Below are positions 3,067-64,000 of a DNA stretch of 64,000 nucleotides, piece after piece; the stretch's first letter is position 1, and every line of letters starts with the position of its first letter. The notes under the pieces were generated by a model. That model saw only the letters and a list, made by a program, of their open reading frames with translations. It searched no databases and was not told the DNA's origin. This stretch comes from a virus. A program made the translations under genes and the position numbers. The stretch covers positions 32,001 through 96,000 of IMG/VR virus record IMGVR_UViG_3300008111_000005; one strand, written 5' to 3'.

Positions 3067-3439
3067 ACATATTCTCCGTTACTTTTTCTTCTGTCTTTAA
3101 CACAGTTTTCTTAATGAATACTTCACGTAACGTAGATATCTTCGTTAATAAATAGGTTCGATAGGGTCTGTCACCAACGAAATTTGAGTTTTTGAAACGG
3201 TCGTAAATTACCTGAGTATCAGTTTCATCACCAATCAATTTAAATATTTGACCAAGTTTTTCTGGTGTTAGAGAACCCAGTGACAAAGCGTGCATTTTAC
3301 CTTCCCAATTGGGATTGAGTACGAGTGCATATTTCTGCTCATTATCGTAGGTAAACTGCACCACTTTGCCAGTAGTCAAATCTTTTTGAGAAACGAAAGT
3401 ACGAACACCTAATGTACCTTTATACCCTTCTATTGCCAT
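3056..3439 (-). CDS. Hypothetical protein
   Basis: 127-aa ORF, TAATG-coupled to the upstream glycosyltransferase. Confidence 0.7.
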   Translation of the reverse strand: MAIEGYKGTLGVRTFVSQKDLTTGKVVQFTYDNEQKYALVLNPNWEGKMHALSLGSLTPEKLGQIFKLIGDETDTQVIYDRFKNSNFVGDRPYRTYLLTKISTLREVFIKKTVLKTEEKVTENMYGE

Positions 3440-4746
3440 TAGTTAATCTTCTTTAATGTTGGAAGAACCAATTTAGTTTCAACGGAAAATTGTGGAACAT
3501 ATTTGTCTAACAACTCAACTGTTCTGTTAAAAATAGTTTGATACGAGAACTTCTTAACATTTTGTTTTGCTAACAACTGTGCCTTCTTTTTAAAATTACT
3601 GTAATTCTTAAATACGGCGTACATTGCGTTTGCTGATTGGTTCATATCAGGAGCGAACCACGTAGACTCCCGAATCAATACACCGTCCCACACAGAACTT
3701 TCGTGGATAGGTTTGAGTTCACCACCAATTAGTAATGAATTGTCTTTATCCAAGAAATCAAGTTGACCACTCCATCCAGATGCGATTACGGGTTTGCCAC
3801 TAATTGATGCTTCAAGTAATGGTCTACCAAACCCTTCACCCTTGGTTAAACTTACGTGTGCTTTTACCTTTGAGTGGTTATATAAAGAATTCATTTCTTT
3901 GTCTGTTAACTCACCATGCAATAAATAAATATTCGGCATGCTCTGTCCAACGTTCAAAGTAACAGATTTCTTGATTTGTTCTATTTTCTTTAATATATCT
4001 TCTCTGTCCAAGATAGAAAATCCAGCACTACTAGTTTTTAAAATAAGCGCAGGCTTTTCTTTTTCTGGAATTTGTCGGAATGTTTCAAGGAATATTTTCA
4101 CCAACAGTGCAACATTCTTACGGTCCTCTCCAAATTCACCACGGAGCCAGTGACCAACGAAAAGATAACAGAACTTCTCTGGGATGCTATCCAATGTTTC
4201 TCGTATTTTTGGCTCTAAATTAAAATCATATTCGATTTTTTTAAATATGTTATTGTCAATACAATTGTGTAATACTTCAATTGGTTTGGTGACTGCTAGT
4301 TCACCAATGATATTACCTTGTTGATTTTGCTGTGAGTACTTTGAGAAATGAAAAACATTCTTTGAGTGTTCGGAAATAGTCAGTACTAAATCCATTTTAT
4401 TACATGCTTGTATCCATTCAGCAGAAGCCACGGTGGTTTCAATGCCGGCGGTTATACCGATATTGTACTTTCCTAACGGTTCAAATTCTGTTGGGATGGT
4501 AATTGTAACATACAATGATGGTTGTGGTAATTGTCCACCACGAATGATTCTATCCAAAATCATTTTGTCCTTTGGATTAGTTTCATCCAGTGCATTCATA
4601 GGAGTATCACCCCACGGTACACTGTGCACCTTCACATCAAACTTATCCCATTCAATGATGTGACGGATAATGTCTCTACTCATATCACCATAACCAGAAC
4701 GAGTCTGGCATGGTGCTCTAACTATACATAACGGTTTGCCTGTCAT
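3439..4746 (-). CDS. GT-B (GT4-like) glycosyltransferase
   Basis: TRSGYG at N-terminus; RKNV; GEGFGRPLLEA (EGFG...E); SGWSGQLDFL. Confidence 0.85.
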   Translation of the reverse strand: MTGKPLCIVRAPCQTRSGYGDMSRDIIRHIIEWDKFDVKVHSVPWGDTPMNALDETNPKDKMILDRIIRGGQLPQPSLYVTITIPTEFEPLGKYNIGITAGIETTVASAEWIQACNKMDLVLTISEHSKNVFHFSKYSQQNQQGNIIGELAVTKPIEVLHNCIDNNIFKKIEYDFNLEPKIRETLDSIPEKFCYLFVGHWLRGEFGEDRKNVALLVKIFLETFRQIPEKEKPALILKTSSAGFSILDREDILKKIEQIKKSVTLNVGQSMPNIYLLHGELTDKEMNSLYNHSKVKAHVSLTKGEGFGRPLLEASISGKPVIASGWSGQLDFLDKDNSLLIGGELKPIHESSVWDGVLIRESTWFAPDMNQSANAMYAVFKNYSNFKKKAQLLAKQNVKKFSYQTIFNRTVELLDKYVPQFSVETKLVLPTLKKIN

Positions 4747-4747
4747 A

Positions 4748-6148
4748 TTATGCCTTCACCAAAGTAAAACGTTCCCGTGGGGTCCAATTATCCCACGCAT
4801 TTTCCATATGTTCGATAAATAATTCACACATACGTTCTGCCGTAAATTGTCCAGCTCCAAGTGCGTATTGACGACCCAACTCACCACGGCGTTTACGTTC
4901 CTCACGCGACATCTTATACACTTCCATTATCTTCTCCGCTGCTTCTTCCCACGAACAACGGTCATCAAAAATGTACGGGGTCAACGGAGAACCTTGTAAA
5001 GAACGACTTACTGGAAATAATGGGAATGCCCATTCACCGTGATTCTTGAAACGTCCATCGTGATTACTACCCCAATCATAATTGAAATCACGTTCAGGGT
5101 CAAGGTACTCACCTTCATCATTTGTGAATCCACACTGGTCTTGCAATCCACCCGTGACATTAACAATGATTGGTGTACCAGCAACTAGACTTTCACACGT
5201 ACCCAAACCAAAACCTTCATTACTAGACATATTAATGGTAACGTCTGCGATGTTATACAGAATGTTGATATGCTTCGATTCGATGCGTTCGTTTGAGAAA
5301 ATAACATACTTTTCTAATTCTGGCATTACGTCACGAATCACCACAGGTAAGTCAGTACCGTGTTCATCAACGGGTTGTGTATGTAATACAAGACGGCACT
5401 TTGAACGTTCTTCTTCTGGTAGCTTTTTCATAAACGTGTTAAATGCCAACAGAATATCCGATGTCATCTTTCTACGAATATTTCTACTATTGTAGAACAC
5501 TACATATTTAACGTCTTGACCGTTAAACAATCGTTCACGAACTTCCAAGAGTTCTTTGTCATCTTCTGGTAGTGGATGGAACTTCTTTGTATCAATTCCA
5601 TGTGGAATGTAGGATAGTGACCACGGAGCACGTGGTTCCTTTCTTGATACGTGCTTTACGATATTGTAGGTTTGTTTACTAATACATCCAATCCAATCAT
5701 CGGAACGATAATAATTTTCATTATAGAATGGATACGGAAGGTCATCCCAAATAGCGTAGAAGAACATAGGAATCTTTTGACGAATCTCATGCTCAATCTG
5801 ATATAACCAAATCCAATATCTTGGGTCTGTGAAATGGAGAATAGCATCTGGCTTTTCTAATTCTATTAACTGACGAATCAATCTACTGTCACCGTATCCA
5901 TTATAGGGAACAATCTTAACACTAGCGTCAGTCAATCCAACTTCATTATTAATTGCGTCGGACATATCAATCATTTTACCGGCCTCAGGATGAGAAACCG
6001 CTGCACCTACCTGTACCCAATTAAATCTATGCGAAGTTCCTTCAATTATTTCACGGGACATAACACCAACACCTGATGTTACTCGCATATCGTCTGAGAG
6101 GAATAAAATCTTCTTACGTTGTTCTTTTGGAATATAACCGTGTTTCAT
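4748..6148 (-). CDS. GT-B (GT4-like) glycosyltransferase
   Basis: SGVG, IPHGID, RNIRRK, SSNEGFGLGTCESL, TGGLQDQ. Confidence 0.85.
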   Translation of the reverse strand: MKHGYIPKEQRKKILFLSDDMRVTSGVGVMSREIIEGTSHRFNWVQVGAAVSHPEAGKMIDMSDAINNEVGLTDASVKIVPYNGYGDSRLIRQLIELEKPDAILHFTDPRYWIWLYQIEHEIRQKIPMFFYAIWDDLPYPFYNENYYRSDDWIGCISKQTYNIVKHVSRKEPRAPWSLSYIPHGIDTKKFHPLPEDDKELLEVRERLFNGQDVKYVVFYNSRNIRRKMTSDILLAFNTFMKKLPEEERSKCRLVLHTQPVDEHGTDLPVVIRDVMPELEKYVIFSNERIESKHINILYNIADVTINMSSNEGFGLGTCESLVAGTPIIVNVTGGLQDQCGFTNDEGEYLDPERDFNYDWGSNHDGRFKNHGEWAFPLFPVSRSLQGSPLTPYIFDDRCSWEEAAEKIMEVYKMSREERKRRGELGRQYALGAGQFTAERMCELFIEHMENAWDNWTPRERFTLVKA

Positions 6149-6172: not shown

Positions 6173-7270
6173 TTAAAATGCTATAATTTCACTGCCACCA
6201 CCACCTCCACCGCCACCACCACTATCTCCGTGTTGTATGTAGGTATCTGTGTGTGGAATTATTTCCGTATCGGAATGAGGAATGTCTGAGTGTGGTACAT
6301 ATGTGTCATTATGAACTGGTGTATCCGTATGCTGTGTGTCGGTGTGTTGCACCTGTGTATCATTATGCACCGTATCGTTGTGTGATGTATCTGCGTGTGT
6401 TGTGTCGTTGTGTGTGGTATCCGCGTGTTGAACAACAACGGTATCTAAATGCCCAGCTGCTCCATCAGCACCAGGCGTCCCTGCTGCACCGGCAGGTCCT
6501 GGTGGACCTGGTGGACCTGGGGTCATAGCCCTATCCAACGCTGCTTGTGCTGATTGTGCCGCTGCAGCTGCGGAAGCCGCTGCAGCTTGAGCCGTTGCAA
6601 GGGCTTGTTGTGCTAATGCACGTACAGGAGCAACTTGTGATTCTACGTACGCTACAATTCTACGCCAATACGGACCATCAAGATATTCATAAATTGGTGT
6701 ACCGACATCTTCTGCAAATATTCTGTTACCTTTTTTTGCCGTAGAATCTTCACGGGTACGTTGTGCTTGTGGAACGAATTTCGCATTTAAATGCGTTTCA
6801 ATCATATCATTCAATTCGTTATTTGTTCTGAATAATTGACCCGTTGCCTGTGTTAACGTAGGTGTTTGTGGTGGTGTAACCGTTACCGGAGTAGTATCCG
6901 TTACGGGTTGTGGTATTTCTTGTGCAGGTGTAAACGATTGTGGTGGATAGAAATTGGCACCAATACCCTTGTCAGGCAACAATCGTAGGTATACACCACC
7001 TGGAGCGATTTCATCATAATCACCAGTGAACAATCCACTTCTGTATGCATTGAATAGTTCCTCTGCATCAACATAGTCTGGATTAATGAACACCCAACCA
7101 CCCGAAGTTGTTGCGGTACTTAATACGTTGGCTGGTAAATTATTTAATTTACGAGTTTCCTCTGCACGTTCTGGTGTAATTACTATACGGCTGTATTTGC
7201 CAGAATTAAATTCGGCTACATCCCCGGCTCCAGCCGCAAAATATATATCTTGTTTTGTTGGTATAGCCAT
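6173..7270 (-). CDS. Putative virion/fibre protein: Ala-rich coil, short collagen segment, 13 H-x-D repeats, poly-Gly tail
   Basis: AQAAAASAAAAA, GPPGPPGPAGAAGTPGADGAAG, then HLD/HAD/HND/HTD/HSD/HGD motifs and a Gly9 run before SEIIAF. Confidence 0.75.
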   Translation of the reverse strand: MAIPTKQDIYFAAGAGDVAEFNSGKYSRIVITPERAEETRKLNNLPANVLSTATTSGGWVFINPDYVDAEELFNAYRSGLFTGDYDEIAPGGVYLRLLPDKGIGANFYPPQSFTPAQEIPQPVTDTTPVTVTPPQTPTLTQATGQLFRTNNELNDMIETHLNAKFVPQAQRTREDSTAKKGNRIFAEDVGTPIYEYLDGPYWRRIVAYVESQVAPVRALAQQALATAQAAAASAAAAAQSAQAALDRAMTPGPPGPPGPAGAAGTPGADGAAGHLDTVVVQHADTTHNDTTHADTSHNDTVHNDTQVQHTDTQHTDTPVHNDTYVPHSDIPHSDTEIIPHTDTYIQHGDSGGGGGGGGGSEIIAF

Positions 7271-54130: not shown

Positions 54131-56020
54131 TTAATCTACATTTTCATCGGTAAAATGTGTATTATAGTGGGTATTAATTCGTCGAACAAATTCTCTAAAA
54201 AATGATTTATTACTATCCGGCGTGACCAATGCTCCGTCTACAATGAGGTCCGCAATTTGCTGTTTATCCTTCAAGATATCCCGCATGTACTCGTCTATAC
54301 TTTCTTCACAAATCATATAGTATGCTTGGACTTGGTTCGTTTGACCGATACGATGGGTTCTGTCCTCTGCCTGTTCGTGATTCGCAGGTACCCAATCCAT
54401 ATCCAAAAAGACAACTGTATCTATGATTTTCTGTAATCCGTCAATACCCATACCTGCGGCACGAATACTAAATAATCCTACTTTTGCTTCTCCGTTGGTT
54501 AATTTATCAATCGTTTCTTGACGTTGATTACGATTCATTTCTCCCGTCAATATTGCTGCTTTATTACCATAATGTTCCAACAAAAATTTTAATGGTTGAA
54601 TATAGCAACTGAATATTAATATTGATCTATCATTATCCAAGAACTCATCAATCATTTCTATAAGACGAGGCATTTTCTTTTGTATAAGAAATGCTTGGAG
54701 TTTTGGCATGTGGGTAACTGATGGTTTTCCATCCATTTTCCACTTCCCAAAAACTTCTTTTAATAGTGCTTGGTATTCTTTCTTTTCATCTTTGGTGAGT
54801 TCTACATACAAATCATTACGTTGCTTCTTTGGTAACTCTTTCAATACTTCATCTTTTTTACGACGAATGACCAAATCTTTTGTGCGGTCATGTAGGTCTT
54901 GCAGGTTACGAGGTGCGTCCCCCTTCCATCCACCATAACGTTCTACAAAGTGATAGAAGTTATTAAATCTATCCTTATCCAAAAAGTTTAATAGTGAGAA
55001 CGCCTCAATAGGACGAGACATAACAGGAGTACCCGTTAAAAATATCGAATATTTTGTTTTAATTCCAGGATATTTTCTTCGTTCTTTCCACGACCCCAAT
55101 ACTGATTTTGCTCGAATAGTTTGACGATTTTTAAGAAACGTTGCTTCGTCACATACCAAGAGATCAAATTTTTGGTCACGAAGTGCTTTATTAATCTTTG
55201 GTACTGCATCATAATGTACGATATGAAACTGATTATCCAGTTCCCCATCGTAATGTTTACTATCCCAGATAGTAGATTTCTTACCAGTAAACTTTTTAAT
55301 CTCACGTTGCCAGTTAATTGTTACGGACAACGGACACACAATTAATGTTTTAAGATTGTGAAGTTGTGCATATCCAATTGCCTGTACGGTTTTACCCAAC
55401 CCAGGCGCATCTGCGATAAGACATCGACCCCCAGCTCTATCTACGAATTTCACACCAACTTTTTGATACGGATATAAAGTAAGCTTCATTCCTTTGATAT
55501 CAAACTCTGTATCTTCCAAAGAACGAATTTCGTCAAGGTCGTGTCTACGAGATTTAAGTTCTTCAACTTTATCCAATACTTTCTTATCGCATTTGATATT
55601 ACTGAAAATAGTAAATACTTTTGGAAGATGTACTAATGGGAACTCCCAATGTTTATCATCGTTGTTCCACTTTCGACCATCTATCTCGTACTTGAACTTT
55701 GCCAACATCGCTTTGTCATATGGCATGACAATGGCAGCGGTCTTATTATCTACTAATAATACCTCTACTTTATCACTTGATGTTTTTGGTAAATCTTTAT
55801 ATGAGATAGTTGGATTGTTTGTTCGTGGTAAATCTAATTCACTAACATCCTCTCCCATTAGAGTTTTTGCCGCGGCAATTCTCCATACTTCTGGCAATCC
55901 CTCTTGCCCAGACATCCATTCTAAATACGAAGGAACACTCCTCGCAACGTGTGCTAAGGAGTGTCCTTTGAATCTACCCCACGTAAAGATTACGTGTTCA
56001 ACCGACTTGTGGAGTTCCAT
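54131..56020 (-). CDS. SNF2-family (HARP/SMARCAL1-like) helicase
   Basis: DAPGLGKT, CDEA, LTGTP, RRKK, GMGIDG, QAEDRTHRIGQ. Confidence 0.9.
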   Translation of the reverse strand: MELHKSVEHVIFTWGRFKGHSLAHVARSVPSYLEWMSGQEGLPEVWRIAAAKTLMGEDVSELDLPRTNNPTISYKDLPKTSSDKVEVLLVDNKTAAIVMPYDKAMLAKFKYEIDGRKWNNDDKHWEFPLVHLPKVFTIFSNIKCDKKVLDKVEELKSRRHDLDEIRSLEDTEFDIKGMKLTLYPYQKVGVKFVDRAGGRCLIADAPGLGKTVQAIGYAQLHNLKTLIVCPLSVTINWQREIKKFTGKKSTIWDSKHYDGELDNQFHIVHYDAVPKINKALRDQKFDLLVCDEATFLKNRQTIRAKSVLGSWKERRKYPGIKTKYSIFLTGTPVMSRPIEAFSLLNFLDKDRFNNFYHFVERYGGWKGDAPRNLQDLHDRTKDLVIRRKKDEVLKELPKKQRNDLYVELTKDEKKEYQALLKEVFGKWKMDGKPSVTHMPKLQAFLIQKKMPRLIEMIDEFLDNDRSILIFSCYIQPLKFLLEHYGNKAAILTGEMNRNQRQETIDKLTNGEAKVGLFSIRAAGMGIDGLQKIIDTVVFLDMDWVPANHEQAEDRTHRIGQTNQVQAYYMICEESIDEYMRDILKDKQQIADLIVDGALVTPDSNKSFFREFVRRINTHYNTHFTDENVD

Positions 56021-56246
56021 CTGTTGTTTGGGTTGGAATCTTTACATACTTCATAGATTCCATATCTAAACGCCATCCTTCTTGTGGAAGTAATCCCATC
56101 ATTACCATCAATTCCACATTAGCATCTTGAAGTTCTCGTAATGAGGTTTGTTGGTATTCACGAATACGACTATTGTGGAGTTCAACCAGTTGTCGGATTG
56201 CTAGTGGTACAGGAACTTCTGTTACTTCACGTTTCTCTTCCGTCAT
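55998..56246 (-). CDS. Hypothetical protein (last gene of the rSAM unit)
   Basis: 82-aa ORF starting 1 nt after the methyltransferase-fusion stop. Confidence 0.65.
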   Translation of the reverse strand: MTEEKREVTEVPVPLAIRQLVELHNSRIREYQQTSLRELQDANVELMVMMGLLPQEGWRLDMESMKYVKIPTQTTDGTPQVG

Positions 56247-56247
56247 A

Positions 56248-57720
56248 TTATACCTTACGTTTAAAGAGTTGCGCCATATCGTCTTGACGATGGATTAATT
56301 TACCTTCCGGTTCCCATTCTTGGTCAAGACCAGTGACCTTCATAATATTATCAATCGAACCATACTGCTGTGTCCAATCACAGGTCAGATTAATTAACAA
56401 TAGGTCTGTCTTTTCATAAAGTTGCTTACGAACTTGTTCTGCTACTATCTTTGTTGTTTCCAACAATCGACCTGGCATTAGGAGAACCAGACTGTATGCT
56501 TTTTCATTCCACGTATGTAAGTCAAATATACTACCCATTGTAAAGATTCCCCAATGGATTGTTGTTGCTGCCGACATACAACGTTGCTTATCCATTTCCA
56601 CACCATGCGGAATTAAATCTTGTCTATCTCCCACCACACGACCTAACAAGACACCATTACCACACCCAAGGTCAAGCACATTTCCACTTGGAATATACTT
56701 CATATCTCCAACTGCATCAAGAATAACTTGATGGAAATGATCCATTGCACCCTTGTTACTAAATCCGTTCTCTTCCCAAACAGAAGTATCTTCCAACGAC
56801 TTAGCAAAGGATAGAGTCTTAGTAATAGGTTTAATTTTAGTTTTCTTTTGGTTATACGGATATGTAATACCCGACATACCATCTTCTGGATATGAATGAC
56901 TGAGCTTTTGTACCGTGTATTTCCACGGTGTCATATCTGTACGTGATGATATCTTATTGATTGGGGTACGAATTTCCGCGATGCCGTGCAACGCTGACCA
57001 TTCCACGGGCCACGAAAGAATTTCATAAATCCAATCAATTTCCTTATTATATCCAAGTGTACGACCAAGTTCTGCCATTTTCATACCAAGTTCTTCTGTT
57101 GCTTTACAATCAAATGAACATGGAAGATGTGAGACTAGTCGAATACCCTGCCACCGCCAAAGAATATTGGATTCTGGTGGAGTGTCTGCATTAATATGAA
57201 TAGTGTGATCGTTGTCGGTTAACGTCAGCTTATCAGCTGCCATTGTCCACGTAGAATCTACATATCCTTGGTTTACCCAATATTTGTTGAAATGTTCAAT
57301 ACAACATGTAGGGTATCCAAGTAATCTTCCCGCTTCACGGTCACGAATAGATGATGGGGAATTCCATATACTGAACCATTCTTCAGCCAATCGTTCTGAC
57401 TTTGTAAAAACAACTCGTATATTATAATCTCCACCAGCATATGGAATTGTAGTAGAGGAATATTGCCCAGTAATTCCTTCCTTTGCCAAGGCAACAATTT
57501 TTACACCATACTTACCATACTCTTCTTGCAACGACATCAATTCCGATGGACGGATGATATCTAGTGCAGATGGTCGAATGTCATGAACCACAGACATACG
57601 TTCTATATGTCTCCATGCACTGGAAATTGCCGAAATAATCGGTTCGTATTTATTTTTGTTTTCCATACTCGTCCACTGCACACGAGTCCAATCTGGTAAA
57701 ACGTGTTTAATTCTTTGCAT
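56248..57720 (-). CDS. DUF483-like Cys-motif domain fused to a class I SAM methyltransferase
   Basis: GRLLGYPTCCIEHF and HLPCSFDC; C-terminal VLDLGCGNG and GVEMD. Confidence 0.7.
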   Translation of the reverse strand: MQRIKHVLPDWTRVQWTSMENKNKYEPIISAISSAWRHIERMSVVHDIRPSALDIIRPSELMSLQEEYGKYGVKIVALAKEGITGQYSSTTIPYAGGDYNIRVVFTKSERLAEEWFSIWNSPSSIRDREAGRLLGYPTCCIEHFNKYWVNQGYVDSTWTMAADKLTLTDNDHTIHINADTPPESNILWRWQGIRLVSHLPCSFDCKATEELGMKMAELGRTLGYNKEIDWIYEILSWPVEWSALHGIAEIRTPINKISSRTDMTPWKYTVQKLSHSYPEDGMSGITYPYNQKKTKIKPITKTLSFAKSLEDTSVWEENGFSNKGAMDHFHQVILDAVGDMKYIPSGNVLDLGCGNGVLLGRVVGDRQDLIPHGVEMDKQRCMSAATTIHWGIFTMGSIFDLHTWNEKAYSLVLLMPGRLLETTKIVAEQVRKQLYEKTDLLLINLTCDWTQQYGSIDNIMKVTGLDQEWEPEGKLIHRQDDMAQLFKRKV

Positions 57721-57738
57721 AACCCCTTCGTGTTTAAA

Positions 57739-58095
57739 TTAAATCTTCAGCTTACTTTTTTCTTCTGCAATAATCTGTTGCAAAAATGCCTTCCACGAAT
57801 TTCCAGCAGTAGCCTGTGCTGTGTCGGTATCCGTACTTACTACTCCAAACTTGGCTTCATACGCTTCACGATACCGACCAGTTTCATCAACGTGGTCTGC
57901 ATGTCCGTTTGTCATATCAAACTCTTCACCAACAATTGTTTGTGATGTAGTTACTACTGGTACGGATTCGGTATCTCGAAATTCTTCTGGAATTTCCTTT
58001 AATATTCCCTTTTCCAAAAGTTCTTTTACTACTTCGAACTTTTGAGCGTAAGCTCCCGATGAGTCTACATGGTCAGCATGTAATCCTTGAATCAT
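57739..58095 (-). CDS. Small acidic protein with two HADHVD motifs (rSAM partner or substrate candidate)
   Basis: LHADHVDSSGAYAQKF and GHADHVDETGRYREAYEAKFG; GAGG RBS. Confidence 0.75.
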   Translation of the reverse strand: MIQGLHADHVDSSGAYAQKFEVVKELLEKGILKEIPEEFRDTESVPVVTTSQTIVGEEFDMTNGHADHVDETGRYREAYEAKFGVVSTDTDTAQATAGNSWKAFLQQIIAEEKSKLKI

Positions 58096-58115
58096 TTGTT
58101 TATCCTCTACTATTA

Positions 58116-59429
58116 TTAAGGTAAAAATCCATATTGTTCGTTAAACTCTTTTGAATATCGTCCTGTTTCGTCTGTATGATCGGCGTGTGGTATTTTACCA
58201 CCGTTTTTCATTACGATTTTTTGTTGTTTGATAAACTTATCAATATCAAACTGTCCTTCCAAATATCGTTTAATCTGCGCCAATCGTAACTCAACACCTT
58301 GACTGTATCCGTACATCAATGCATCTTCGTATTTTTGTCTATCTGGATGTAGTGACAATGGTGTTTCTCCTTTATGCACCATTAACTTTTCAAATATACC
58401 GAATGCCACTTTCCAATTCAAGCAGGTGTCTGTACGATTTCTCCAATCCATATCAATACCTGTACCAGGACAATGTGCCTTACAAGTTAAGAAGAAACGA
58501 CATCCTTGACATCCACCGTGTTCCTGCGGTGTGTGGTATAACGCCATTTGACGTTCAAATCCATCATATTGGGCTTTAATCCAATTAATACCTTCTTTAT
58601 TTCCACGACCACAATTTGCTTGGTTTCCTTGTGAATCAATACCTTGCACTGCGTGGGTAGTATATGGGTCACACGATAAGAAGGTACATGTTGCATTATT
58701 ATCTTGTGCCTTTAACATATCTTCTACGTCACGGAAAATATCGAATCGAAATGACCGTTTACCAGGACCATTTAATTCATTAATTTCAAACTCCCACATA
58801 TCCAGTAAGAATTCAATATTTTGTTCTGGTGTTAACGCAAGTGATTCCCCAATTGAACTGTGGTCAATTTCTAACGGATGGAGGCGAGCGCCATCAACAC
58901 CCCACGATTGAAGTTCTTTTACCCATGCCTTAAATCGGTCACGGTATTTTGGAAGTCCATTCTTTTTGTGAACAGTGATAATTAAACCAAGAGAAATTTT
59001 ATTAGCTAATAGTTTCTTAATTGCTTCAAATGATTTACGAGTAGCTTCTCTGGTTTTTTCCAATGACCCCGCCCAACGAGTATCATTCATTTCATCGGGT
59101 CCGTCGAGGGACACACCAACGTGAACGTTATACTTCTTGAACATTTCAATGTGGCGGTCGGTGATTAAAACACCATTTGTTTGGATACCATTTGCTTTAT
59201 AGCGTTCGTATCCCCACTTAAAAATAGTTTCTAAATCGTCAATATCAGTTAATAATGGTTCACCACCAAATAGAGTAAAGTTACCACCCTCTTTGGCCAA
59301 ACCTTCTAACATTTTTTCAACAGAATATGTTTTTTGACGGAAGTTACCCGCGTCACGCATAGGATGTTCGTAACAATACGGACAACTTAAATTACATACT
59401 ACTCCAACTGGTTCCAATTCAATCGTCAT
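58116..59429 (-). CDS. Radical SAM enzyme with SPASM domain (anSME/peptide-maturase type)
   Basis: CNLSCPYC, FGGEPLL, IQTNG, VSLDG; SPASM cysteines CTFLSC...C...CQGC.....C...C...C. Confidence 0.92.
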   Translation of the reverse strand: MTIELEPVGVVCNLSCPYCYEHPMRDAGNFRQKTYSVEKMLEGLAKEGGNFTLFGGEPLLTDIDDLETIFKWGYERYKANGIQTNGVLITDRHIEMFKKYNVHVGVSLDGPDEMNDTRWAGSLEKTREATRKSFEAIKKLLANKISLGLIITVHKKNGLPKYRDRFKAWVKELQSWGVDGARLHPLEIDHSSIGESLALTPEQNIEFLLDMWEFEINELNGPGKRSFRFDIFRDVEDMLKAQDNNATCTFLSCDPYTTHAVQGIDSQGNQANCGRGNKEGINWIKAQYDGFERQMALYHTPQEHGGCQGCRFFLTCKAHCPGTGIDMDWRNRTDTCLNWKVAFGIFEKLMVHKGETPLSLHPDRQKYEDALMYGYSQGVELRLAQIKRYLEGQFDIDKFIKQQKIVMKNGGKIPHADHTDETGRYSKEFNEQYGFLP

Positions 59430-59458
59430 ATAACCTCGTGATTAATAAATCATTTTAT

Positions 59459-59487
59459 AAGTTACTACATTCCACCCACATTGTCAA
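59459..59487 (-). promoter_or_regulatory. Sigma70-type promoter for the rSAM unit
   Basis: TTGACA-17 nt-TAACTT in the 64-nt gap. Confidence 0.55.
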
Positions 59488-59493
59488 GCCCCA

Positions 59494-60264
59494 TTATGGA
59501 CCAACAAATACTGGTTGGTCACTATGTGGTGTGGTATTATCTGTATGAGCAGCGGGAGTAGTGTTATCGGTGTGTGCAGCCGGTGTGGTATTATCCGTAT
59601 GAGCAGCGGGAGTAGTGTTATCGGTGTGCGCAGCCGGTGTGGTATTATCCGTATGTGCTGCTGGAGTCGTATTGTCCGTATGTGCTGCATTGATAGTAGT
59701 ATTTGTGTGTGCCGCGGCAATGTCTGTGTGGCTGGTAGCAATGTCTGTGTGACTCGCTGGTGTGGTATTGTCCGTATGTGCTGCGTTGGTAGTATTATCC
59801 GTGTGTGATGCGTTAATAGTGGTATCAGTATGTGCTGCTGGCGTGGTGTTGTCGGTGTGTGCAATGTTAGTGTGGGATGTAGCAATATCAGTATGAGATG
59901 TTGCTATATTCGTGTGGGATGTTGCGATGTCGGTATGCGCAGCATTCGTAGTGTTGTCTGTATGTGATGCGTTAATAGTGGTGTTAGCAAACGCAATATT
60001 CGTGTGTGAATTTCCAGTGTAATTGTCTGTGTGCGCAGCTGCGATATTAGTATGCGATGCAGCAACATTGGAATGTGGTGTAGTGCTGTTACTAAACGCA
60101 ATATTACTGTGTGCAATATCGGAATGTGAAGATATTGTCGCAATATTACTATGCGCAATATCTGTATGTGCTGACGACGCAGCGGCATTACCGTGTGCGA
60201 TATTTGTATGTGATCCAGCCACATTGCTATGACCGCCGGGAGAATAACTATCGGAATGTGCCAT
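59494..60264 (-). CDS. [H/F]-x-[D/N] repeat protein B (256 aa, 33 motifs)
   Basis: Almost entirely HTDNTTPAA, HTDIATS and HTNIA units; AGGA RBS. Confidence 0.88.
   Translation of the reverse strand: MAHSDSYSPGGHSNVAGSHTNIAHGNAAASSAHTDIAHSNIATISSHSDIAHSNIAFSNSTTPHSNVAASHTNIAAAHTDNYTGNSHTNIAFANTTINASHTDNTTNAAHTDIATSHTNIATSHTDIATSHTNIAHTDNTTPAAHTDTTINASHTDNTTNAAHTDNTTPASHTDIATSHTDIAAAHTNTTINAAHTDNTTPAAHTDNTTPAAHTDNTTPAAHTDNTTPAAHTDNTTPAAHTDNTTPHSDQPVFVGP
59521..59690 (-). repeat. 27-nt coding tandem repeat (HTDNTTPAA, about 6 copies)
   Basis: Units differ at synonymous positions. Confidence 0.85.
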
Positions 60265-60281
60265 AAAATATTATTCCTGAA

Positions 60282-61442
60282 TTATGAGCAGAGTTCGTTG
60301 GTACCACCACATACTTGATAATTAGAACACGCTAGGTAATAAAAACAACCCGAACATGTAACCAAATTGATACCATCACATACACTAGTACCATCGGTGC
60401 AACAATAATTATTTGTATGAGAGGCATTTGCCGTACTGTCTTGGTGGGATATTGAAGTATTAGTGAATGCAATATTATTATGCGCAATATCAGAATGTGA
60501 AGATATCGCCGCAATATTACTATGTGCTATATCCGTATGTGCGGAAGAAGCTGCAATGTTACTATGCGCAATATTAGTATGTGCCGCAGCGATATTTGAA
60601 AAGTTTGTAGTACTATCCGTATGACCTATTGATGTATTCGTATGTGCTGCGTTGGTAGTACTATCCGTGTGTGCGATATTTGTATGTGAATTTGGTATAT
60701 AACTGTTTGTATGTGCAGCAGGTATTGTACTATCGGTATGCGGAATTGTGGTATTCGTGTGTGGTATTGTGGTGTTGGTATGTGGAACTGTGGTATTGAC
60801 GAACGCAATATTTGTGTGAGCTGCTGGTGTGGTATTGTCCGTATGTGCTGCATTGATAGTAGTATTTGTATGTGCTGCGTTGATAGTAGTATCTGTATGT
60901 GCTGCTGGTATCGTAGTATTTGTGTGAGGAATAGTGGTATTTGTGTGTGGAGTTGTATTATCTGTATGTGATGATGGTGTGGTGTTATCTGTATGTGCAG
61001 CAATCGTGGTATTGTCTGTGTGTGCAGCAATTGTTGTATTATCGGTGTGTGCAGCAATCGTGGTATTATCGGTGTGTGCTGCGTTGATAGTAATATCAGT
61101 ATGTGCTGCTGGAGTGGTGTTATCGGTGTGTGCCGCAGTTACGTCGGTGTGACCACGAATTTCACTACCTGTACCAGAAATCCAATGCCAAAAAGTACTT
61201 TCAACCCACACAGAACCAGCCTTTGCACCTGCCGCAGCACCTAAGTTTGTATATGCAATTGTACGGTCAACCCCTGTAGCGGAGATATAATGGAAATCAT
61301 TTCCATCTACCCACACCGATCCAGGTTTAGCTCCCGCTGGTGATGTACCGGCGGTACCAGTATAATAATATTCATTTCCCGAGCCGTCTATGAAACGAAA
61401 CGTTTCACCATCAACCCAGATACTACCAGGTGCCTTTGGCAT
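60282..61442 (-). CDS. [H/F]-x-[D/N] repeat protein A (386 aa, 33 motifs) with a 3x GSxWV N-domain and an 8-Cys C-terminal tip
   Basis: PGSIWVDG/PGSVWVDG/AGSVWVES repeats, HTD array, YCCTDGTSVC...ELCS. Confidence 0.88.
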   Translation of the reverse strand: MPKAPGSIWVDGETFRFIDGSGNEYYYTGTAGTSPAGAKPGSVWVDGNDFHYISATGVDRTIAYTNLGAAAGAKAGSVWVESTFWHWISGTGSEIRGHTDVTAAHTDNTTPAAHTDITINAAHTDNTTIAAHTDNTTIAAHTDNTTIAAHTDNTTPSSHTDNTTPHTNTTIPHTNTTIPAAHTDTTINAAHTNTTINAAHTDNTTPAAHTNIAFVNTTVPHTNTTIPHTNTTIPHTDSTIPAAHTNSYIPNSHTNIAHTDSTTNAAHTNTSIGHTDSTTNFSNIAAAHTNIAHSNIAASSAHTDIAHSNIAAISSHSDIAHNNIAFTNTSISHQDSTANASHTNNYCCTDGTSVCDGINLVTCSGCFYYLACSNYQVCGGTNELCS

Positions 61443-61474
61443 ATATTAAAATCTCCACATAACGATAACTTTCA

Positions 61475-61482
61475 TATAAATA
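61475..61482 (-). promoter_or_regulatory. TATTTATA motif before repeat protein A
   Basis: Exact copy about 33 nt upstream of ATG 61442, followed by GGAG. Confidence 0.45.
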
Positions 61483-61485
61483 GAG

Positions 61486-62349
61486 TTATACACAAGTAAA
61501 TGTTCCTAAACAACCAACTGGCCGTGCTGCACATACTACTGCGTAGACACTACTATTGGGATTTGTATAAAAATTTGACCCAGATGATGGACTACCATCG
61601 GCACAAGTTACATATCCTGCGGGACACGATGCATCCACACCACGAGTTCCTTGTGGACCTGTTGGTCCTTGTACACCAGTAATTCCCTGTACTCCAGCCG
61701 ACCCCGTGGATGCCGCTGGTGCAGAAATACCTGTAACTCCTACAACACCCGTTGCTCCTTGTGGTCCCGATGGTCCTGTTGCACCCGCTGTGGGTAATCC
61801 TACAACACCACCTACACCCGTAGCACCCACCACGTTTGTTAATCCCGATGGTCCTGTTTGTCCAATAATTCCTGTTATACCAAGAATTCCTTGAATACCT
61901 GTTGCACCTGTTGGTCCTGTTGCACCCGTTGCGCCTGTTGACCCAGACACTAGTGAACCGATACCTGTAGCACCCGTTGGTCCTGTAATACCAATAGACC
62001 CCGATGCTCCTGTTGGCCCTGTTGGTCCCGTAGACCCAGTAACACCAGTTGGTCCAATAACTCCTGTTGGCCCTGTTGGTCCTAGTGGTCCTGTTGGTCC
62101 AGTTGGACCTGAGGTAGTTAATCCCGTTACCCCAGATACTCCTGTTGGTCCAGTAGACCCAGACCCAGCTATACCTACCAAACCAATTGGACCTGTTGGA
62201 CCTCTATCACCTATAACTCCTGTTGCACCAGGTCCATATGATGCGGTTAATACATTTACTCCCGCAGCGTATGTTGCAGTAAATGCTAAATTACTATATA
62301 ATGCAACGCTTGCAGTAGTTGGTGTACCAAGTGGAAAAAATGTGGTCAT
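61486..62349 (-). CDS. Collagen-like fibre protein with Cys-rich C-terminus
   Basis: G-x-T triplets (GPT/GAT/GIT) with interruptions; 5 Cys in the last about 46 aa. Confidence 0.88.
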
Positions 62350-63908
62350 AGGAATGCGTTACTGTGAGCGGCAGCGACATTTGAATGTGCTGCGGTGATA
62401 TTGGAGAAATTGGTGGTATTGTCTGTATGTGCGGCGGTAATATCCGTGTGTGCTGCGGTTATATCCGTGTGTGCTGCTGCAATGTTACTATGTGCAATAT
62501 TTGTGTGTGCTGCTGCAACATTTGAAAATGCGATGTTACTGTGTGCGATATCAGTATGTGATGCGTTGGTAGTATTATCAGAATGTGATCCTGGTGTAGT
62601 ACTATCAGTAAATGGAATATCGGTATGTGACGACGGTGTAGTACTATTTACGAATGCCGCATCGGTATGCACACCTATTATATCACTGTGATCATTAAAT
62701 GGACTACATGGTGTACCAGATGGACAAGAAGAATATCCGAAATAAAATAAACATCCAGGCCCCGCATCACCATCTAAACAATAAACACCAGTCGCTGCAT
62801 CATCACCATGCCCGATTGTACTGTCCGAATGTGGTTGATCAGTATGTGAGGCCGGCGTGGTACTAGATATTGCCGCAATATTAGTATGTTCTGTGTTAAT
62901 AGTAGTATTTGTGTGTGCTGCGTTAATAGTACTGGAACTTCCCGCAATATTTCCGTGTGAAATATTTGAATGTGGTGTGGTACTAGTAATTCCAGCAATA
63001 TTGGTATGTGCTGTATAATTGTTTGTGTGTGGTATTGTGATATTTGTAAAGTTTGTAGTACTGTCGGTGTGTGCTGCAGTAATATTAGAATGTGGTGTAG
63101 TACTATCACTATGTGGGACCGTAATATCGGAATGTGTTTGATTACATGATCCCGTGACGAAAAATGCAGCTCTTCCCGCAGCACCTTGTGGTCCTGTTGG
63201 ACCGACTGGCCCAGAAGGACCGGTAATACCTGTAACACCAGCGGAACCGAAGGTATTAGGACCACTAATACCCTGTGAACCTGCTGCACCCGTTGCTCCT
63301 GTTGGTCCTACTGGTCCTGTTGCTCCAGCACTACCAGATGGACCGATTGGCCCCGTAGAACCAACTGGCCCCACACCTGTTGGTCCTGTACTACCTTGTG
63401 GTCCTGTTGGACCTGTTGAACCTGTTGGTCCAGTTGCTCCAGCAACACCCGCTACACCACCAAATATACCAACACTACCTGTTGGACCTGTTGCACCAAT
63501 TGCCCCTGTTGGACCTGTTATACCTCGACTACCTGTTGGTCCCGTAACACCGATTACACCAGTGCTACCAGTTGGACCTGTTGGACCCGTGGGGCCTGTA
63601 GATCCTGTGATGCCACTTGGTCCAGTTGGACCTGTTGACCCAGATGTTTGTGGTCCAGTTGATCCTGTGGGTCCAGTTATACCGATAGAGCCGGACACGC
63701 CAGTTGGACCTGTTGGACCTGTTGGCCCCGTTGCTCCTGTTGGTCCTAGTGGTCCTGATGGTCCTGTAAATCCACCTATAGCGAACGATGCAGTAGCATA
63801 TCCAGACCCACTATTTACCGCAACTGACGCTGTAAACGTCAGTACACTTGCAGATAATGCGAATGAACTAGTAGTTGGTGTTCCGTATGGGAAAAACTTA
63901 AACGTCAT
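62346..63908 (-). CDS. Collagen-like fibre protein with C-terminal H-x-[D/N] hairpin and Cys loop
   Basis: About 200 aa of G-x-T, then 13 His motifs, a 4-Cys loop and 13 His motifs. Confidence 0.88.
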
Positions 63909-63923
63909 AACACTTACTCTCTA

Positions 63924-64000
63924 TTACGGTGTATTTGCACCTGTTGGTCCTGTTGCTCCTACTGCACCTGTTGGTCCTGTTGCTCCCGTAGCACCCGTAG
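63924..64000 (-). CDS. 3' end of another collagen-like gene (partial)
   Basis: ...[24 protein letters not shown]. Confidence 0.75.
   Translation of the reverse strand, partial: TGATGATGPTGAVGATGPTGANTP

Follow-up and report, generated by a model that had tools for sequence, protein, structure and literature searches.

What might a radical S-adenosylmethionine (SAM) enzyme be doing beside the fibre genes of a phage, and on what could it act? The question is raised by a locus at 55998–63908 of a 64,000-nucleotide stretch of viral DNA (here called the window), corresponding to bases 32001–96000 of the 104,871-bp virus record IMGVR_UViG_3300008111_000005, which is rated as about 55% complete. 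An earlier note on this DNA had pointed to a radical SAM (rSAM)/SPASM gene next to fibre-like genes crowded with aromatic-x-Asp/Asn motifs. From the comparisons described here, it seems probable that the locus is a phage copy of a three-part maturation module, comprising the rSAM enzyme, a DUF483-like partner and substrates rich in aromatic-x-Asp/Asn triplets, and that it works by the cyclophane mechanism proposed below. To judge from their sequences, the substrates here are four proteins of the tail-fibre cluster with about 100 triplets, and chemical modification of each triplet by the enzyme pair is the most likely outcome; our best guess at the product, by analogy, is a triceptide-like crosslink from the aromatic ring to a C-beta.

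Aromatic-x-Asp/Asn triplets in the fibre proteins

How substantial are the repeats? The earlier note had described three fibre genes of H-[T/S]-[D/N] units upstream of the rSAM gene, with about 100 aromatic-x-Asp/Asn motifs, and counting bears this out: the genes at 59494–63908 encode 87 H-x-[D/N] triplets (26 + 30 + 31), 82 of which are H-[T/S]-[D/N], and 11 F-x-[D/N] triplets (6 + 3 + 2), that is, 98 motifs. In the first product, a 520-aa fibre protein (62346–63908, minus strand), a collagen-like Gly-X-Y region (approximately residues 45–250) is followed by two array-bearing arms (residues 259–369 and 404–517) that flank a Cys-rich apex loop and carry 26 H-x-[D/N] and 6 F-x-[D/N]. The second, of 386 aa (60282–61442, minus strand), begins with a domain of three PGSxWVxG-type repeats (residues 1–95), continues with an array extending from His98 to His342 (30 H and 3 F motifs) and ends in a Cys-rich knob (approximately residues 345–386). 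The third, of 256 aa (59494–60264, minus strand), is nearly all array (His3–His247; 31 H and 2 F motifs) and has the C-terminus HSDQPVFVG.

The inventory of the note nevertheless needed correction at two points. Its fibre-gene block does contain the three array genes, but between them lies a fourth gene that had gone uncounted, for a collagen-like fibre protein of 287 aa that lacks His and is Cys-rich towards its C-terminus (61486–62349, minus strand). Having no histidine, this protein is not a candidate substrate, and its gene is kept amid the array genes in relatives (orthologues of 58–100% identity in loci L004–L014). It and the 520-aa protein match the Pfam collagen triple-helix model PF01391 at 84 and 80 bits, respectively, against a cut-off of 27.2. 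The substrate set, on the other hand, has to be extended by an additional array protein encoded outside the range of the note, at 6173–7270 (minus strand), some 50 kb from the rSAM gene: this 365-aa protein consists of an N-terminal domain, an Ala-rich coil, a short collagen stretch, 13–14 HxD motifs and a poly-Gly end.

Inside the arrays, the residues concerned are almost entirely confined to triplets (all 87 His, 11 of the 13 Phe and 52 of the 55 Asp), the two off-motif Phe residues being located in the Cys-rich apex loop. Composition-preserving shuffles of the three array regions gave averages of 4.4, 5.4 and 6.2 motifs (standard deviation about 2; maximum 13 in 2000 shuffles), compared with the 26, 30 and 31 observed. 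Successive motifs are 5, 7, 9, 12 or 14 residues apart, and the underlying DNA repeats are diverged (periods of 21, 27, 42 and 54 nt, with 75–89% matches). Phe substitutes for His in register, and Asn for Asp; in the clade to which the window belongs, 155 of 741 motifs have Phe, and the third residue is Asn in 150 of these 155. The middle residue of the triplet is free across clades, being G, A, Y, N, V, I or L elsewhere.

A radical SAM/SPASM enzyme outside the named families

The 437-aa enzyme (58116–59429, minus strand) belongs to the radical SAM superfamily (Pfam Radical_SAM, PF04055, 60 bits against a cut-off of 29.5). Its assignment by the earlier note as an rSAM/SPASM protein could be upheld, the Cys pattern being complete: C12-x3-C16-x2-C19 is followed by C248, C253-x14-G268-x4-C273, C307-x2-C310-x5-C316-x3-C320 and C336, which conforms to the pattern for two auxiliary clusters (C-x9-15-G-x4-C ... 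C-x2-C-x5-C-x3-C ... C). The CxxxCxxC and SPASM cysteines are invariant in an alignment of nine homologues, and the profile aligns to the anaerobic sulfatase maturase anSME through the SPASM domain (profile positions 2–340 with residues 5–357 of 4K36), although the Pfam SPASM model itself finds no match in the protein at E 0.01. There is no N-terminal RRE (recognition element for ribosomally synthesised and post-translationally modified peptides, or RiPPs), the NCBIfam models for anSME, DynA, YhhB, AmcB, GrrM, FxsB and XyeB all aligning from their own first 5–15 positions. The C-terminal tail (58119–58196), which carries HADHTD (two HxD units back to back) and then a GRY...YGF segment, is conserved in loci L005, L008, L010 and L011.

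To which family might this enzyme belong? In profile searches against the PDB, the closest relative of solved structure was anSME, at E 2e-16, followed by ChlB, a triceptide synthase, at E 2e-10. Matches to NCBIfam models are confined to the first 160 residues, and the cut-offs of the named families are all missed (YhhB, 68 of 445 bits; AmcB, 64 of 425; GrrM/OscB, 55 of 310; FxsB, 50 of 370; XyeB, 39 of 450), as is that of the anaerobic sulfatase maturase model TIGR03942 (76 of 349 bits). Neither a sulfatase gene nor a Cys/Ser-x-Pro-x-Arg motif is present in the locus. In the Hxs system, too, a repeat protein with a His-x-X motif is encoded beside rSAM genes, but the motif is a different one and two rSAM proteins are accompanied by HxsD; no Hxs model was among the best 25 NCBIfam matches of the window enzyme. 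By these sequence comparisons, the enzyme represents a distinct family in the anSME/cyclophane-synthase neighbourhood and is a member of no named family.

Recurrence of the three-part module

Is the association of enzyme and motif more than an accident of one contig? Had homologues of the enzyme mostly occurred without HxD proteins, the idea put forward in the earlier note would have had to be given up; instead, synteny and gene fusions tie the enzyme to the motif. The search of other phages that the note had recommended found the trio in 22 viral contigs and in three Thermus phages. Every one of the 22 loci from IMG/VR that has enough flanking sequence contains all three parts, and the viral trio is complete even at 42–56% identity and in other gene orders. 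In Thermus phage Cumys, the order is tail collar fibre gene, gene for a 343-aa protein, rSAM gene (46% identity) and DUF483 gene, and the 343-aa protein has 54 HxD motifs and an N-terminal domain in common with the 386-aa protein of the window; homologues of this domain occur not only in this protein, Cumys_13, but also in proteins of loci L032, L035 and L023 (a Protein Atlas search with the domain gave scores of only 0.82, within chance). Thermus phage phiLo has open reading frames (ORFs) with 75 and 102 motifs, 4 kb from an rSAM/DUF483 pair. Among the viral examples we draw attention to a 156-kb contig (L023, 8001–13545) with two rSAM paralogues, two DUF483 genes and a 228-aa array protein whose motifs are almost all H-x-Asn.

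The module had been listed previously, a point that the earlier note missed: a preprint on Thermus phages (10.1101/2024.08.14.607894) describes an 'rSAM module' of unknown function in Cumys and phiMa (Cumys_13/12/11), naming the rSAM and DUF483 genes only, leaving the third gene as unknown, making no mention of HxD repeats and proposing a role in DNA modification. The window agrees with Cumys and phiMa in its three parts, in their order and in their place at the close of the tail or baseplate genes, all three adjacent proteins being homologous (rSAM enzyme 46% identical, DUF483 protein about 32%, N-terminal domain of the substrate about 33%). It departs from those phages by its four substrates, its fusions to collagen, a hairpin split between two genes (see below), variants with Asn and Phe, an added methyltransferase domain and the 118-aa protein. 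We found no literature connecting the module to HxD repeats, fibre modification or a mirror code, and nothing relevant on HxD repeats with rSAM enzymes or on rSAM enzymes with tail fibres.

Among cellular organisms (surveyed with one genome per prokaryotic species), there were ten orthologous loci, in Acidobacteriota, Bacteroidota, Gemmatimonadota, Actinomycetota, Bacillota, Alphaproteobacteria and one haloarchaeon. DUF483 is encoded directly downstream in all ten, and an HxD-rich ORF is present in eight: five have clear arrays (L027, L029, L030, L032 and L035), while of the other three, L034 has a precursor-like peptide of 89 aa with three motifs, L036 a run of motifs at the C-terminal end of a 1370-aa protein, and L028 a weak candidate (seven of nine His in motifs). 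Some of the cellular HxD ORFs have signal-peptide-like N-termini. The 89-aa peptide, from a member of the Solirubrobacteraceae (L034, 10271–10540), follows an rSAM-DUF483 gene pair, has a signal-like segment and three C-terminal HxD, and is succeeded by a P-loop protein; to judge by sequence, the system is here reduced to a minimal, RiPP-like form, which would be convenient for biochemistry. None of 70 more distant SPASM loci, taken as a control, had DUF483 or an HxD protein.

A profile search of 1.84 billion representatives yielded 410 family members at E 1e-30, and the best 150 of these (141 of them full length) were inspected for fusions and tails. The rSAM and DUF483 proteins are fused in 28 of the 141, and 67 of the 141 have at least three HxD motifs in their own C-terminal tail, where 89% of His residues lie in the motif, compared with 14% in the core. 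A functional link between enzyme and motif thus seems well supported by synteny conserved in phages, bacteria and an archaeon, and by gene fusions.

The DUF483-like partner and the small proteins

The genes downstream of the arrays are as the earlier note described them (rSAM/SPASM enzyme, 118-aa HADHVD protein, Cys-motif/methyltransferase fusion and 82-aa ORF, all on the minus strand). The partner, a 490-aa protein (56248–57720, minus strand), combines a DUF483-like domain (residues 1–285) with a class I SAM methyltransferase domain (residues 315–490). Its match to the DUF483 model PF04467 is borderline and partial (25.7 against 25.0 bits; residues 125–213 on profile positions 33–102 of 122), and the domain has conserved motifs, GYPxCC ... 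HxPCxxxC, that possibly form a Cys4/His metal or cluster site. A predicted model of the domain (predicted local distance difference test score 91.7) gave nothing at E 0.001 in a Foldseek search of the PDB (the best match was NleE, E 0.04), and VIA-align produced leads rather than assignments (2GUK, of unknown function, Z 9.1; NleE, Z 6.0, over residues 31–153 only); a profile search of the PDB with DUF483 found no match. Residues 315–490 contain the Gly-rich motif VLDLGCGNG and resemble TehB-like, NodS and PrmA methyltransferases in their predicted fold (Foldseek E about 1e-6), which marks them as a class I SAM methyltransferase, although Pfam and NCBIfam methyltransferase models stayed below their cut-offs for the 490-aa protein; the model of the whole protein had only methyltransferase matches, through this C-terminal domain. 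Partners in several clades carry such a fused domain.

The 118-aa protein (57739–58095, minus strand) has two HADHVD-xx-G-x-Y modules, with all four of its His residues in HxD, and thus contains twice the module that is also present in the rSAM tail. In every close relative (L003–L014), its gene separates the rSAM gene from that for DUF483; distant modules lack it. The 82-aa ORF (55998–56246, minus strand) overlaps the start of an SNF2 helicase gene by 23 nt; its distribution is similar (43–100% identity in L003–L014, close relatives only, and absent from distant modules), and it is probably outside the core module.

Mirror-image spacing and fibre architecture

How might the arrays be arranged in a fibre? 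Those of the 386-aa and 256-aa proteins are each exactly 244 residues long, and when the 256-aa array is reversed (C to N) and laid on the 386-aa array, 31 of 33 motif positions coincide, compared with 12 in the forward reading (20000 spacing shuffles averaged 6.1 coincidences and never exceeded 22). The two arms of the 520-aa protein are likewise mirror images around the Cys-rich loop, 108 residues each, if 12 is taken as 5 + 7 and 14 as 5 + 9. Split pairs in relatives match in 47 of 47, 44 of 45, 38 of 39 and 44 of 44 positions, and single proteins of relatives match internally in 102 of 103, 56 of 57, 40 of 40, 24 of 25 and 16 of 17. In Cumys_13, in phiLo and in the haloarchaeal protein, among others, internal mirror symmetry is weaker yet significant, and bacterial signal-peptide substrates do not show it. 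Where motifs face each other in mirror pairs, FxN is opposite HxN in 118 of 356 pairs (about a third) and opposite HxD in 25, and Phe is opposite Phe once only (the sequences are related, so these counts are not independent).

Neither duplication nor DNA inversion can create mirrored protein spacing, so the pattern must have been selected, and it leads us to conclude from the sequences that the arrays probably pair antiparallel and in register. Single-chain hairpin homologues, such as an 869-aa protein of L010, have the PGSxWVxG domain at the start and HxDQPVxVG at the end; as the former is on the 386-aa protein and the latter on the 256-aa protein, these two appear to be halves of one split hairpin. 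The terminal H-x-D-Q-P-[VE]-x-V-G (at 59494–59530 of the window) ends the returning arm in phage, Thermus phage and haloarchaeal homologues (L010, L011, L018, L001 and L035), and may dock back onto the N-terminal domain. Each array would therefore run out to a Cys-rich tip and return, in one chain (520 aa) or two (386 aa + 256 aa), and the antiparallel arrays, taken together with the collagen segments, suggest a trimeric out-and-back rod with a Cys-rich tip, like the needle of T4 gp37. A complex prediction with three copies each of segments of the 386-aa (residues 94–206) and 256-aa (residues 139–256) proteins scored 0.00, with the partner poorly folded, and weighs neither for nor against such a rod.

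In T4 gp37, the needle (PDB 2XGF) turns round where its head domain lies and runs back, has six strands, and binds Fe through HxH (PMC12609058). The likeness would lie in a chain predicted to go out to a tip domain and back, in short His i/i+2 motifs along both strands and in a probable trimeric context; the differences are that gp37 has HxH-Fe, only about seven motifs and no maturation enzyme, whereas here the motif is HxD/N and the strands can be separate gene products. No sequence similarity of the arrays to gp37 was found. Segments with 6–9 Cys per approximately 40 residues occur at 60282–60410, 61486–61650 and 62750–62850, which correspond to the C-termini of the 386-aa and 287-aa proteins and to the turn of the 520-aa hairpin, and a truncated ORF at the end of the contig (L026, 11567–11872) is likewise Cys-rich; such segments are candidate disulfide-knotted receptor-binding tips.

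What might happen to the triplets?

We propose that, before or during assembly, the rSAM enzyme would abstract the C-beta hydrogen of the Asp or Asn at +2, and that this C-beta would be bonded to the ring of the His or Phe, giving a cyclophane of three residues like that of triceptides. Its DUF483 partner might be a substrate handler or a second catalyst, the methyltransferase domain might add a methyl group to the product, and docking onto the arrays, in place of a leader peptide, may be the task of the enzyme's HxD tail and of the 118-aa protein. A cyclophane at each triplet is favoured because the triplets, in which His is exchanged with Phe, Asp with Asn at +2, and the middle residue is free, follow the logic of triceptides, whose rSAM enzymes abstract the C-beta hydrogen of residue 3 and bond it to an aromatic ring, and include several that act on His motifs: HaaB (HAA), YhhB (HNR) and HtkB (HTK, with a bond from His C2 to the Lys C-beta), the last of which accepts Phe (PMC11499958). 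As in these systems, the enzyme is an RRE-less rSAM/SPASM protein (its cluster motif begins at residue 12, as in the YhhB, XyeB, GrrM and FxsB models), the 98 adjacent H/F-x-[D/N] are repeated aromatic-x-x units with exchangeable His and Phe, and the C-beta of the third residue is a plausible site of attack. The systems differ in that the substrates here are structural, leaderless proteins with 13–100 sites, the DUF483 partner is obligatory and the third residue is always Asp or Asn. The earlier note was right in seeing the substrates as long structural proteins, the array genes being in the tail-fibre cluster, and in finding no leader peptide, transporter or peptidase in the locus.

Several points weigh against this proposal. 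Known triceptide substrates are short leader-bearing peptides, whereas those of the module have 250–870 aa and 30–100 sites; with scores far below all of the named cut-offs, the type of reaction cannot be transferred by homology; fold searches with DUF483 gave no functional assignment; two cellular loci (L031 and L033) have no HxD ORF within 8 kb; and the i/i+2 pattern, trimeric context and out-and-back layout would also be expected of a metal-binding needle like that of gp37. A middle Ser or Thr as the target, as in anSME, was considered and rejected, given the variety of middle residues in other clades.

Could the same enzyme act on the same motif by some other chemistry, such as epimerisation, beta-hydroxylation or oxidation of Asp/Asn, modification of His with methylation, or a crosslink between strands? 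The enzyme is in no characterised family, and its nearest solved relative, anSME (PDB 4K36–4K39, aligned through the SPASM domain), oxidises a C-beta without crosslinking; it has no RRE, and modifies a protein rather than a leader-bearing peptide by abstraction of a C-beta hydrogen, although its target is Cys/Ser-x-Pro-x-Arg, at one site per substrate compared with dozens here, and the window enzyme scores far below its model. The fusion of methyltransferase domains to the partner in several clades also fits such a reading, and links between strands are conceivable because mirror pairing sets motifs of two strands side by side. Against this, His, Phe and Tyr replace one another at position 1 while D/N stays at +2, which is the hallmark of triceptide motifs with a bond from ring to C-beta (PMC11499958), and a middle residue that varies so freely is not the target; we regard another chemistry as unlikely, if the least so of the alternatives. 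More doubtful still is the suggestion that ions are bound along the core by the His (i) and Asp (i+2) residues of three chains, the rSAM/DUF483 pair aiding assembly without covalent modification of the triplets. Such binding would suit the mirror layout with its tip domain at the apex, the trimers implied by the collagen segments, the conserved Cys4/His site of the partner and the doubled-back, six-stranded gp37 needle with its HxH-Fe sites (PMC12609058). It accounts for the geometry, but not for the layers of Phe and Asn, for arrays with Asn alone, for short bacterial substrates without a mirror layout or for the conservation of the enzyme pair: Phe, present in about a fifth of the clade's motifs, is no metal ligand, the many pairs of FxN opposite HxN have no carboxylate at all, the arrays of L023 are almost all HxN, and the secreted three-motif substrate of L034 and the non-mirrored arrays of L027 and L029 keep the enzyme pair yet cannot form a needle. 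His/Phe and Asp/Asn equivalence is thus better suited to chemistry on the ring and C-beta than to metal ligation, and we know of no rSAM/SPASM enzymes that act as metallochaperones.

The remaining explanation, that the rSAM/DUF483 pair modifies DNA or a nucleotide and has HxD neighbours by coincidence, draws on homologues reported near deazapurine DNA-modification genes in some cyanobacteria (10.1101/2024.08.14.607894) and on the SNF2 helicase gene that comes after the module in the window. SNF2 adjacency is, however, limited to close relatives, about half of the family have HxD arrays within the enzyme chain itself, and the trio is conserved across domains of life despite changing neighbours, so we consider this explanation highly improbable. 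Returning to the cyclophane proposal, the modification may stiffen or armour the fibre. In its fullest form (fibres as covalently stapled rods with some 100 in-register cyclophanes, made by an enzyme that finds its leaderless substrates through its HxD tail and a small HxD protein, and widespread in phages of bacteria and archaea), the proposal is a tentative one that we think may well prove too ambitious.

Gene neighbourhood

The module genes are all on the minus strand, with spacings of at most about 65 nt or small overlaps, from which they may be co-transcribed; a promoter and terminator scan gave results at chance level. Beyond the end of the window, still on the minus strand, are genes for a further collagen protein, for a Cys-rich protein of 232 aa, for one of 283 aa and for large fibre-like proteins of 1185 and 731 aa, the former with weak PHROG matches to structural and minor tail proteins. 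On the other side, replication genes adjoin the module (UvsX-like recombinase, DnaB-like helicase, ribonucleotide reductase and DNA polymerase). Thus, with collagen and fibre-like genes on one side and replication genes on the other, the module closes the fibre gene cluster. The 1185-aa and 731-aa proteins (L026, 5249–11093, in the same genome beyond the window) are built from a recurring GTVSSSAQYPGWVTASSQIDYN-type unit and have no Pfam match, and the 232-aa protein (L026, 3688–4386), encoded between the large fibre and collagen genes, has a Cys-rich C-terminal CxxC...CxxCxC and a weak match to DUF6171.

Directly after the fourth array gene, on the minus strand, come two GT4 glycosyltransferase genes (4748–6148 and 3439–4746) and a gene for a nucleotide-sugar epimerase (1876–2895). 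N-T-T and N-x-T sequons are, moreover, abundant in the array proteins, and glycosylation of a fibre protein is possible. Open frames on the plus strand (63154–63999, 59515–59808 and 60711–61244), consisting of Pro/Val/Gly or Cys/Ile/Arg repeats, were dismissed as by-products of repeat composition rather than genes. A megablast search with 24 kb of the window against a phage collection gave no match.

Implications

rSAM/SPASM maturases are known from small secreted peptides and from the activation of sulfatases, and we know of no description of enzymatic modification of a virus structural protein at multiple sites. If the triplets are crosslinked, the module would provide a new way to make fibres that resist heat, proteases and force; it would add a new class of substrate for cyclophane synthases, that of leaderless proteins bearing as many as 100 sites, and DUF483 would gain a role. 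The module is richly represented in the window, by four substrates (some of them fused to collagen), a hairpin in two halves, motifs with Phe or Asn, and HxD units both in the tail of the enzyme and in an additional small protein, and, as cultured Thermus phages carry the same module, the question is directly testable. The mirror code amounts to a rule, at the level of sequence, for the assembly of arrays, and natural split and fused variants allow it to be tested. Should the fibres indeed be stapled rods, RiPP chemistry would have been recruited for the architecture of virus particles.

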